64,000 bases of DNA from a virus. The stretch spans positions 53,582 through 117,581 of the IMG/VR virus record IMGVR_UViG_3300021963_000047. The stretch is one strand, 5' to 3'. Shown piece by piece: positions 50,870 through 53,153 of this stretch. The position numbers and the translations under genes are program-made. Each line of letters begins with the position of its first letter. The stretch's first letter is position 1. Under the pieces are notes generated by a model that ran no database searches, had not been told where the DNA came from, and saw only the letters and a list, made by a program, of their open reading frames with translations.

Positions 50870-51957
50870 CAGCAGTTTTAACCGCTCCTTTCATTCCTAT
50901 TGCTAAGAATCTTTCTTCACATCGTGCAGCGCAGGGTGTGATTTATGCCGATCAGCTCAAGCAAGCTGGTGTTGACGTTTATGTTAATATGTCTCTAGAT
51001 CGTTATATAGAAGATCATAATACATTTGATACCATGTATGTCTATCATGGTAACGACTGGTCAGGTCATCTTAATTTGTTTGGCGGACTAAAAGAATTTC
51101 CACATGTGGATAATTTCTTGAATTTCTCTAAGTTTAAGGGTAAAGTCTATTCATTGATTATAGATTTTCCTGACTACTATGAGCAACTCAAACATAAAGT
51201 AGATCTCGCTAATAGTAAGAACAAACCAATCGATCCTCGTTGGAATCAGGTCGATTGGAATAATATTATTCGTATGCAAAAGGAAGCTGTAACTATTACA
51301 CCAAATCTTTTGAAGGTATACCCAAATATTGCAATTGGTGATAGTCATGCTATCTGCATGTATCGACCTGGATGGGTAAACTATTCTATCCCATTTAAAA
51401 CTCTTCATGGCGCATTGAAAATGGGTCTTAAAAGTTTTATTAAACCTAGCGATCATGATTTTGAAAATATAGAGTTTTATTTTGGTAATATTGATGTTCG
51501 TCATCATCTTCTGCGTCAACCAGATCCTGTAGTTGCTACTAAAGAAATAGTTAAAGAATATACACAACAGGCTCTTGAAGTCGCAAAGATGTATAATGCC
51601 ACTGTTACTCTTTATGAACTTCTTCCTATCGAAAATGAGAAGCGTCATATTCCTAAGACAGGTTGGTATGAAAAAACACCATTCTTCGGATCTCGTGTTG
51701 AACGTGATAATATTCGTAAACTCTTTAAGCAAGAACTGAAGAAGTATGAATGTGAATCTCTTCGTGTATTCGAATGGGTTGACGGTCTTATTAATGAACA
51801 TGGCGAGTTAGATTTTAAATACATGGAGAAGCCACAATCAGTGCATCTTTCTAGAGAATTTTATCCACATTGGCAAGGTTGGGAGTGGAATGGACTTAAA
51901 CCTCCTATAAATAAACCAGCTAAAGTAAATCATGCCAGCCTTGAGAGTTTTATATGA
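50866..51957 (+). CDS. SGNH-fold protein in the DNA-modification cluster
   Basis: IGDSH (block I), FGNIDVRHH (block III) and SVHL (block V). Confidence 0.55.
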   Translation: MTAVLTAPFIPIAKNLSSHRAAQGVIYADQLKQAGVDVYVNMSLDRYIEDHNTFDTMYVYHGNDWSGHLNLFGGLKEFPHVDNFLNFSKFKGKVYSLIIDFPDYYEQLKHKVDLANSKNKPIDPRWNQVDWNNIIRMQKEAVTITPNLLKVYPNIAIGDSHAICMYRPGWVNYSIPFKTLHGALKMGLKSFIKPSDHDFENIEFYFGNIDVRHHLLRQPDPVVATKEIVKEYTQQALEVAKMYNATVTLYELLPIENEKRHIPKTGWYEKTPFFGSRVERDNIRKLFKQELKKYECESLRVFEWVDGLINEHGELDFKYMEKPQSVHLSREFYPHWQGWEWNGLKPPINKPAKVNHASLESFI

Positions 51958-53153
51958 GACATGCGACGATTATTCCGCTTATTGGCGGAGAAGCAATTGC
52001 TTCAACTAATGTGTTTGGTAGTCGACCAGATTACATCCTTTCTTACAGCGCATTTAAAGATAACGAATCTCATCTTCTAAACTACTGGGATCATGAAGTC
52101 CCGTACTATGTTTTAGATGAGGGTCAACGTCATCCTCATGAAGTAGATGTTATTTCTAGCGTTTGTCCATGTGCTGGTCTTTCTATGTTTTCTTTGGGAT
52201 ATGGTGAACATAATCCTAATAATAAATGGATGATTGAAACCGCAAAATATGTTCTTGGAGAAGTAAAGCCAAAAGTATTTTGGGGTGAGAATGCTCCTGC
52301 TCTTGCAGGCAAAGTAGGCAAGCCAATCAGAGAACAGCTGCAACAAATTGGCAAAGAGAATGGCTACACCATGACCCTCTATCGTACTAAGAGTTTGCTT
52401 CATGGTGTTCCACAAGTTAGAGAACGTACATTCTATTTCTTCTGGCGTAGTAATAAAACACCATTGCTAAACTTCTATAGCCGCGAATACGAAAAGATTG
52501 AAGACGTCATCACTGGTGTAAAGTCAAACACAATGATGGAACCAATCAATAAAAACACACCAAGCAAAGATCCATACTATCGTTATCTTCTTGAAGTCAT
52601 TCATGGTGGTGTAACCCATCGCGAGCACTTCGATCTCTTAGATCTTAGAGATATTGCAGTTAGATATTTTGATGCTAAGTCATTGATTGAGCATCATAAT
52701 CATTCATATCTGCAAGTAGGTGAATGGATGCAAAAGCAAGGTTATGAGAAAGAAGTTGAGAAGTGTAAGCGTATGCATGAAAAACTTGCATCTGGTGGTA
52801 ATATCATGAGACGTGGTACTATCGTTCCTAAGGATCATATTGGTGCATTTGTCGGTCATTATCCTAAGATGCTTACACATCCATATGAAGATAGATACAT
52901 TACTTACAGAGAAGCACTCAGTATCATGGGAATGCCTGAAGACTATGAGCTTCTAAAACCGACTGTAAGTTATAATCATATCTGTCAAAACGTTCCCGTC
53001 AAGACTGCGACTGATATGGCTACAGAAGTCAAAGCGGTATTAGACGGTGAAAGAGACTATGTTGACAATTTCATGGTATATCAATATAATCATGATCGTA
53101 CTAATGAAATTACAAGCACAAAGACTAGCACACTAGTGGAGTATTTTAATTAA
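51954..53153 (+). CDS. DNA cytosine-C5 methyltransferase-like protein with an atypical motif I
   Basis: Motif IV CPCAGLS, VI GENAP, VIII GVPQVRER, IX RYITYREA..IMG.P and X QNVP. Motif I reads IIPLIGGE instead of FxGxGG. Confidence 0.75.
   Translation: MRHATIIPLIGGEAIASTNVFGSRPDYILSYSAFKDNESHLLNYWDHEVPYYVLDEGQRHPHEVDVISSVCPCAGLSMFSLGYGEHNPNNKWMIETAKYVLGEVKPKVFWGENAPALAGKVGKPIREQLQQIGKENGYTMTLYRTKSLLHGVPQVRERTFYFFWRSNKTPLLNFYSREYEKIEDVITGVKSNTMMEPINKNTPSKDPYYRYLLEVIHGGVTHREHFDLLDLRDIAVRYFDAKSLIEHHNHSYLQVGEWMQKQGYEKEVEKCKRMHEKLASGGNIMRRGTIVPKDHIGAFVGHYPKMLTHPYEDRYITYREALSIMGMPEDYELLKPTVSYNHICQNVPVKTATDMATEVKAVLDGERDYVDNFMVYQYNHDRTNEITSTKTSTLVEYFN
53062..53090 (+). promoter_or_regulatory. Perfect sigma70 consensus promoter embedded in the MTase 3' end
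   Basis: TTGACA-17 nt-TATAAT, 62 nt before the 53153 ATG. Confidence 0.75.

Follow-up and report, generated by a model that had tools for sequence, protein, structure and literature searches.

We analyzed a 399-residue protein that resembles cytosine-C5 methyltransferases and is encoded at positions 51954..53153 of a 64-kb stretch of phage DNA (hereafter the window), the 3′ 64 kb of the 117,581-base IMG/VR virus contig IMGVR_UViG_3300021963_000047. All window features given below lie on the plus strand. Most likely this methyltransferase-like (MT-like) protein is a DNA cytosine-C5 enzyme that has the residues needed for catalysis and belongs to a virus-specific branch of the C5-methyltransferase fold. 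Sequence comparison suggests that the branch is most likely a core part of T4-style modules for 5-hydroxymethylcytosine (hmC) DNA, which hold a gp42-type hydroxymethylase, a deoxycytidine monophosphate (dCMP) deaminase and DNA glycosyltransferases and lie just ahead of the sliding-clamp gene. In hmC DNA the free C5 on which C5-methyltransferases depend is missing. Among the sequences compared here the MT-like gene is the most constant partner of the hydroxymethylase, and since the pairing extends over thousands of aquatic and soil phage sequences, it points to a gap in the textbook T4-type pathway.

Fold and motifs of the MT-like protein

Assignment of the open reading frame (ORF) to the C5-cytosine methyltransferase fold comes from a Pfam profile, an AlphaFold2 model and a Foldseek search. 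PF00145 matches the protein at 71.3 bits (cut-off 22), starting only at residue 61, which corresponds to profile position 59. The model, built from a 99-sequence alignment (predicted local distance difference test score 94.3), has an intact beta1-alphaA-beta2-alphaB-beta3 half-site, with strands at residues 3-6, 28-30, 51-53 and 66-69 and helices at 12-21 and 32-44. Its top Foldseek matches are MET1/DNMT1, M.HhaI and M.HaeIII (E ~1e-12 to HhaI and HaeIII), and the phage enzyme CmoX (8yf3) stands at rank 31. Conservation was read from an alignment of 99 rows, made up of the window protein, P0074 and 97 representatives. A length-and-motif filter had let through 101, from which P0170, P0172, P0231 and P0252 were dropped; because rows were chosen for length and motif, the invariance of its motif columns is partly due to selection.

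The catalytic Pro-Cys, the motif VI Glu and the QxRxR of C5 methyltransferases are all present. Motif IV is Pro72-Cys73-Ala74-Gly75 (PCAG, residues 72-75, 52167..52178), aligned to PCQ in HhaI and PCS in CmoX, with Cys73 in 99/99 rows and Ala74 in 85/99; the residue after the catalytic Cys is therefore Ala here, compared with Gln in most methylases and Ser in CmoX. Motif VI is ENAP (residues 112-115, 52287..52298), aligned to ENV of HhaI and HaeIII, so that ENA replaces the canonical ENV and Glu112 is found in every row (99/99). Motif VIII, QVRER (residues 154-158, 52413..52427), aligns to HhaI QKRER (Arg156 and Arg158 in 99/99 rows, Gln154 in 97/99), and motif IX, REALSIMGMPEDY (residues 319-331, 52908..52946), aligns to RECARVQGFPDDF of HaeIII.

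Two other motifs are replaced. The FxGxG(G) loop for S-adenosylmethionine (AdoMet) is absent, and IPLIGG (residues 7-12, 51972..51989) stands in place of FxGxGG: in an hhalign profile alignment I7-P8-L9-I10-G11-G12 falls onto F-A-G-I-G-G of Escherichia coli Dcm, and Pro8, Gly11 and Gly12 occur in 99/99 rows and Leu9 in 98/99. Motif X, (G)N(A/S)V(P), is replaced by QNVP (residues 345-348, 52986..52997, from HMMER alignments to 1dct and 8yf3), and GNxV is found in the last 120 residues of none of 137 viral ORFs. HMMER aligns C344-Q345-N346-V347-P348 onto G-N-A-V-P of M.HaeIII, and therefore Gln345, not Asn346, sits at the canonical motif X Asn, a position equivalent to HhaI Asn304 and CmoX Arg350; Gln345 is present in 99/99 rows. 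A preliminary description of the window had read PC, EN, QxRxR and motif IX as kept and motifs I and X as replaced. That reading is borne out; the replacement of motif X is real, while its residue correspondence needs adjusting, with Gln345 in the place of the canonical Asn.

These altered motifs, first noted in one protein, are family-wide and under strong constraint, as seen both in the 99-row alignment and in the 150 best cluster representatives, a set unselected for motif. P-[LIVMF]-x-G-G occurs within the first 80 residues of 133 of the 150; none of the 17 representatives without PxxGG has FxGxGG, and most of the 17 are either truncated or have a variant such as PGIGG. QNxP is found in 114/150, and the remainder are mostly truncated. 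To judge from the sequences, the replacements are not chance and mark a large, almost purely viral family (the PLIGG/QNVP family). It comprises 887 clusters at 50% identity (E<=0.001), 250 of them at 1e-30, and 2441 relatives at E<=1e-5 in a large protein collection. Of the Atlas clusters shown, the three closest consist of viral members only (100%), and when 185,579 species genomes were scanned once with two motif patterns, just 16 loci emerged, every one in metagenome-assembled genomes. Literature searches, whose coverage did not extend to the CmoX sequence-network tables or the MetaGPA domain lists, found no paper characterizing the family. Passages from the MetaGPA paper, a glycosyltransferase preprint, a 5-hydroxycytosine paper and a 5mC-deaminase preprint mention no methyltransferase-like partner of the hydroxymethylase.

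Four long relatives (P0177, P0182, P0190 and P0223; 598-1462 residues), from metagenome contigs of 2-5 kb, retain IIPLIGG, CPCAGLS and QNVP and resemble eukaryotic transcripts. Their tails are of low complexity, rich in Lys/Glu or Arg/Gly; zinc-finger-like motifs are present, and in one of the four Pfam recognizes a CXXC domain. Eukaryotes may have acquired a branch of the family, which was then joined to CXXC and zinc-finger tails.

Compared with canonical enzymes, the methionine/transfer-group side of the cofactor pocket is rebuilt under strong constraint, and part of the adenine side may survive. Phe34, Asn37 and Asp65 are nearly invariant in the 99 rows; Asp55 is D in 68, N in 10 and E in 9, and Asp55 and Phe34 are mostly retained in the viral loci. 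One reading of the rebuilt side, quite unlikely in our judgment, is that another group, or a group from another donor, is placed on unmodified cytosine, in parallel to CmoX and carboxy-AdoMet. This would include hydroxymethylation of C to hmC at the DNA level, turning leftover cytosines into glycosyltransferase substrates, and such hmC making would explain why the family is retained with every type of sugar transferase. As reported, CmoX is a phage DNA cytosine C5-carboxymethyltransferase (PDB 8YF3) whose hallmarks are an SPPC motif and a carboxyl-binding Arg350, which contacts the transferred carboxymethyl group and replaces M.HhaI Asn304 (PMC12783734). Gln345 occupies this same position beside the transferred group, and as in CmoX the residue after Cys is small. 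However, both SPPC and Arg350 are absent, with CPCA and Gln345 at the aligned positions, and no folate, AdoMet, AdoMet-tailoring, CmoA or other donor-synthesis gene recurs near the family loci. A phage CmoA (TIGR00740) was found in 0/5 records, two of them complete isolate genomes and another two near-complete contigs, although a host CmoA could substitute. We also know of no class-I methyltransferase fold that uses methylene-tetrahydrofolate, which counts further against another donor.

Identity with CmoX itself was rejected, as the motif definition failed and CmoA is absent in the 5 records. The similarity between the two proteins is remote (profile E 2.4e-12), no better than that to HaeIII.

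Association with hydroxymethylcytosine genes

We examined 310 loci, the 80 closest in IMG/VR and three sets centered on distant clades, which leave 138 once redundancy is removed at 90% identity between MT-like proteins. They were retrieved by motif patterns, partly the family's own motifs and partly motif VIII; their ORFs come from a simple caller, and gene families are BLAST single-linkage groups, each named from one representative. A six-frame hidden Markov model search finds a thymidylate synthase (TS)-like gene in 94 of the 138 non-redundant family loci, compared to 2 of 81 loci in a control set centered on canonical phage C5-methylases, whose loci have a similar mean length and were not identity-reduced (Fisher p 1.4e-24, a value that overstates independence because the loci are related). 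By BLAST family, 92/138 loci have a same-strand TS-like gene, and all of these neighbors (92/92) have the catalytic Cys together with an Asp at the ThyA-N177 position. The check proposed in the preliminary description, whether PLIGG goes with hydroxymethylase-bearing phages, therefore favors the association: the PLIGG/QNVP family co-occurs with dCMP-type hydroxymethylase homologues. The proportion is 65/86 among loci with at least 7 kb upstream. Nine of the 21 remaining records could be searched whole; four of them, including both near-complete ones, have an Asp-type homologue elsewhere, and the five without a TS homologue are 6%–23% complete fragments.

In the window the dCMP hydroxymethylase is a T4 gp42 homologue at 46373..47029 (E 2.5e-84 to PDB 1b49), with Asp at the ThyA-N177-equivalent position (NDYAW aligned). 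It is the sole TS homologue on the 117.6-kb contig (a single PF00303 match) and is followed by a dCMP deaminase gene at 47026..47493 (PF00383, E 6e-21). Cultured phages have comparable arrangements. For instance, in cyanophage S-TIM54 a gene annotated as ThyA adjoins the MT-like gene and has Asp at the N177 position. In Pseudoalteromonas phage XG4 the MT-like gene is preceded by genes for an Asp-type TS, for a sugar nucleotidyltransferase-kinase and for two GT-B-like glycosyltransferases, and Bacillus phage G has a distant relative, gp301 (AQGVP at motif X), with an Asp-type TS ~13 kb away. The S-TIM54 "ThyA" (L002:9114-9956) is the sole TS homologue in a complete genome and, judged by its Asp, probably modifies dCMP instead of making thymidylate. 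A figure legend assigns a DNA alpha-glucosyltransferase to TIM5-like phages.

Gene content immediately before the MT-like gene varies. It includes T4 alpha-glucosyltransferase homologues (23/138 loci), a GT-B-like family (40/138) and sugar-nucleotide enzymes; other frequent neighbors are replication and nucleotide genes. The MT-like pocket residues are unchanged whatever the transferase context, and the substrate and cofactor should therefore be common to all of these systems and not sugar-specific.

Two further genes recur in this region. A 389-residue protein with the helical domain of a 5-hydroxymethyldeoxyuridine DNA kinase (HMUDK; PF18723, E 1.3e-12; e.g., L292:4912-6081) occurs in 21/138 loci, ~2 kb upstream of the MT-like gene in loci with an Asp-type TS. 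Many copies have a polymerase-type tail, and the protein is a candidate kinase for hmC in DNA. A myo-inositol-1-phosphate synthase homologue lies ~4 kb upstream in 19/138 loci (e.g., L249:6208-7410), near sugar-nucleotide genes, and hints at unusual sugars or cyclitols on DNA.

A constant pocket raises an alternative in which the substrate would be plain hmC. By this account, unlikely but of real weight, the enzyme works without AdoMet on hmC already in DNA: Cys73 adds to C6 of hmC, and the CH2OH group is either removed or exchanged for a nucleophile by way of an exocyclic methylene intermediate. Leu9 would fill the methionine channel, and the small Ala74 and the polar Gln345/Asn346 beside C5 would handle CH2OH. 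C5-methyltransferases deprived of AdoMet reportedly couple thiols to hmC or release formaldehyde in vitro, in work from the Klimasauskas laboratory. In favor are the close co-occurrence with Asp-type TS homologues and with transferases directed at hmC, the placement of the pocket changes around the C5 substituent (from the CmoX alignment) and a clamp-type tail shared with GT-B-like and HMUDK-like enzymes, whose expected substrate is hmC. Yet such a reaction has no known natural precedent and no recurring nucleophile-supplying gene, and it would compete with glycosyltransferases for the same hydroxyl. In addition, Phe34 and Asp55 are conserved as if binding adenine, and the CXXC-bearing, eukaryote-looking relatives suggest an unmodified CpG target.

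This AdoMet-free chemistry is the core of what the preliminary description had proposed, minus its link to a pyridoxal phosphate (PLP) enzyme, whose product was to be attached to hmC. In the 80 closest loci the order is MazG-like, a 135-residue protein, gp42-like, dCMP deaminase, sometimes a uracil-DNA glycosylase (UDG)-like gene, a variable insert and the MT-like gene, followed often by DUF3310, a GT-A-like gene and then clamp, gp44, gp62 and regA. In the window and a few relatives, two genes of undefined family, a fold-type-II PLP-like gene and the gene for a 363-residue protein form one coupled run upstream of the MT-like gene, which is the arrangement that speaks for the link. However, the PLP gene is present in only 6/80 close loci, while the MT-like gene is in 80/80 (by construction) and in many other contexts, and the pocket residues are constant across them. 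Most relatives have a deaminase, UDG-like or glycosyltransferase gene directly before the MT-like gene. The PLP link was rejected on this co-occurrence (insert in 6-7/80 close loci), and we regard attachment of a PLP-enzyme product as very improbable. The window insert (47859-50869) encodes 387- and 345-residue proteins and then the PLP-like protein (PHROG "threonine dehydratase"). Pfam at relaxed E-values gives no match for any of the three, and for the first two none even at E 5; the first two genes are in 7/80 and 6/80 close loci.

The C-terminal tail and the possible reaction

The MT-like protein ends in TSTLVEYFN (53124..53150), a candidate clamp-binding peptide like the tails of family-B DNA polymerases of related phages. 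C-terminal peptides of the T4 and RB69 polymerases bind the gp45 clamp, and DNMT1 is tethered on PCNA. There is no polymerase gene on the window's contig for a direct comparison, and we used the 35 non-redundant loci that hold both genes. In these the two tails co-vary: polymerases ending in NT(I/L)E(D/S)FF go with MT-like proteins ending in TLE(A/E/S)F(L/I/F), and YTTSLF goes with YKVKSII. The MT-like tail is the most polymerase-like in 8/35 loci and among the top 3 of a median of 22 ORFs in 20/35. GT-B-like, 363-residue-like and HMUDK-like proteins share the tail type; TS and GT-A-like proteins are without it. By a rough pattern, about half of the family representatives (49/99) have such a tail. 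A predicted complex of three gp45 copies with MT-like residues 355-399 (score 0.20, mark 0.32) speaks neither for nor against binding. We infer from the tails that the sliding clamp may tether the enzyme to freshly replicated phage DNA, and a polymerase-like tail would argue that its target is the nascent DNA of the phage itself and not that of the host.

This bears on the suggestion that no group is transferred at all, the protein being a DNA-binding or base-flipping factor, or else an enzyme damaging to unmodified host DNA, perhaps by AdoMet-free cytosine deamination. A rebuilt cofactor site would suit such a role, hmC would confer self-immunity, and a UDG-like gene is nearby in 23/80 loci. 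But Cys73, Glu112 and the Arg pair are strictly conserved, as one would expect of a catalyst, and the tail points to the phage replication fork and not to host DNA; we consider the suggestion improbable.

The reaction we favor would begin with the enzyme held by its tail on newly replicated phage DNA. The cytosine would be flipped out, and as the invariant motifs suggest, Cys73 would attack C6, Glu112 would protonate N3 and Arg156/Arg158 would hold O2. A one-carbon group would then be placed on C5 of those cytosines that escaped replacement by hmC, with atypically bound AdoMet as the single most likely donor, although methylation of leftover cytosines from AdoMet is a tentative proposal that falls short of even chances. 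For an adenosyl cofactor speak the intact Rossmann half-site, the conserved Gly11-Gly12, Phe34 and Asp55 and the lack of any recurring gene for cofactor synthesis in the neighborhood; because Phe34 and Asp55 are kept, ordinary methylation is still a candidate. The eukaryote-looking relatives, one with a CXXC finger, suggest that the enzyme works alone with a universal metabolite.

Several observations weigh against this proposal. A phage whose cytosines are already hmC has few free C5 positions. The motif I loop is changed, with the Gly of FxG now an invariant Leu and the Phe now Ile or Val, and the motif X Asn is an invariant Gln, at the position that in CmoX determines the group to be transferred. 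Residues 1-60 are missed by Pfam and by most PDB profile alignments. No acid is conserved at positions 31-33: at position 32, where the acid after beta2 is expected, the 99 rows have S in 30, D in 19, P in 12, K in 12 and E in 7 (D/E 26/99, and about half of the viral loci; Ser here), a motif II mapping that is uncertain by 1-2 residues, as a global hhalign alignment to Dcm misplaced beta2. The target-recognition region is the least conserved part of the protein (0.32 versus 0.49-0.61), and such variability makes a poor fit to a general mop-up role. Finally, the loci are non-independent and were in part fetched using the family's own motifs, and the proposed clamp tethering is argued from tail likeness.

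Taken together, chemistries other than AdoMet methylation are about as likely as AdoMet. Possible, although on the doubtful side, is the combined picture of a clamp-tethered DNA enzyme that carries out no AdoMet methylation but a novel C5 reaction on replicating hmC-phage DNA, perhaps with a branch captured by eukaryotes. Candidates for the reaction are hydroxymethylation of leftover cytosines in DNA and a Cys-assisted step in which the hydroxymethyl of hmC is substituted or removed. What remains of the probability falls to something else. Should the enzyme be an ordinary methylase, it would show that a second safeguard, acting post-replicatively at the fork, is required by hmC phages. Otherwise a well-studied scaffold would carry out a natural modification of DNA that is new, and this would be directly relevant to epigenetic sequencing and DNA-labeling chemistry, as CmoX and the AdoMet-free side reactions of M.HhaI have been. 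Cultured carriers exist in the TIM5-like cyanophages, Pseudoalteromonas phage XG4 and Bacillus phage G.

Neighboring genes and known systems

The window has a low G+C content and a T4-like gene order, and its source is an uncultured T4-like water phage; the contig is an estimated 70% complete. A megablast search with 16 kb found no close DNA relatives among isolate phages. The MT-like gene is translationally coupled to its neighbors on both sides, its ATG overlapping the preceding stop codon (ATGA) and its TAA overlapping the following ATG (TAATG). The gene before it, joined at the ATGA, encodes the 363-residue protein (50866..51957; phrog_13881), which ends in ASLESFI, matches T4 beta-glucosyltransferase faintly (E 0.077) and is present in 22/80 close loci. 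Downstream lies a candidate GT-A-like glycosyltransferase (53394..54266; phrog_1574), a conserved partner found in 69/80 close loci. It is followed, 1.1 kb downstream of the MT-like gene, by a candidate gp45-like sliding clamp (54283..54936), so assigned from the T4 gene order and from the gp44-like clamp-loader gene after it (54946-55890).

Other genes of the region are of interest in their own right. A 94-residue DUF3310 protein (53153-53437) begins on the final base of the MT-like stop codon, and its gene follows the MT-like gene in 45/80 close loci. Between the gp62-like and regA-like genes, a 2-oxoglutarate-Fe(II) oxygenase is fused to DUF6817 (56243-57343; 2/80 close loci), and after regA there is a PP-loop/QueC-like ATPase (57796-58668; 0/80).

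The MT-like protein shares with the canonical C5 methyltransferases M.HhaI, M.HaeIII and Dcm the fold, motifs IV, VI, VIII and IX and a variable target-recognition region between VIII and IX. It differs from them in IPLIGG, in QNVP, in the Ala after Cys and in having no conserved acid after beta2. The family is also hmC-linked, and in the scan of species genomes it was found in neither restriction-modification settings nor isolate genomes.

With the T-even system for hmC and glucosyl-hmC the window shares a close gp42 homologue and a position beside genes 45, 44, 62 and regA, and related loci have alpha-glucosyltransferase homologues and dUTPase-family, kinase-like and MazG-like genes. To our knowledge T4 itself has no C5-methyltransferase-like gene, whereas here the MT-like gene is a constant partner of the hydroxymethylase. 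Clamp-tethered DNA enzymes provide a further parallel in the short hydrophobic/aromatic C-terminal tail, which in related loci resembles that of the polymerase of the same phage and may serve as a clamp-binding peptide.

CmoX is the nearest characterized precedent. Like the MT-like protein it has a phage C5-methyltransferase fold, a replaced motif X Asn and a small residue after Cys, and it handles a group other than methyl, which serves as a handle for hypermodification. Unlike the window protein, it is described there as retaining the adenine and ribose contacts Phe25, Glu47, Phe48 and Asp69.

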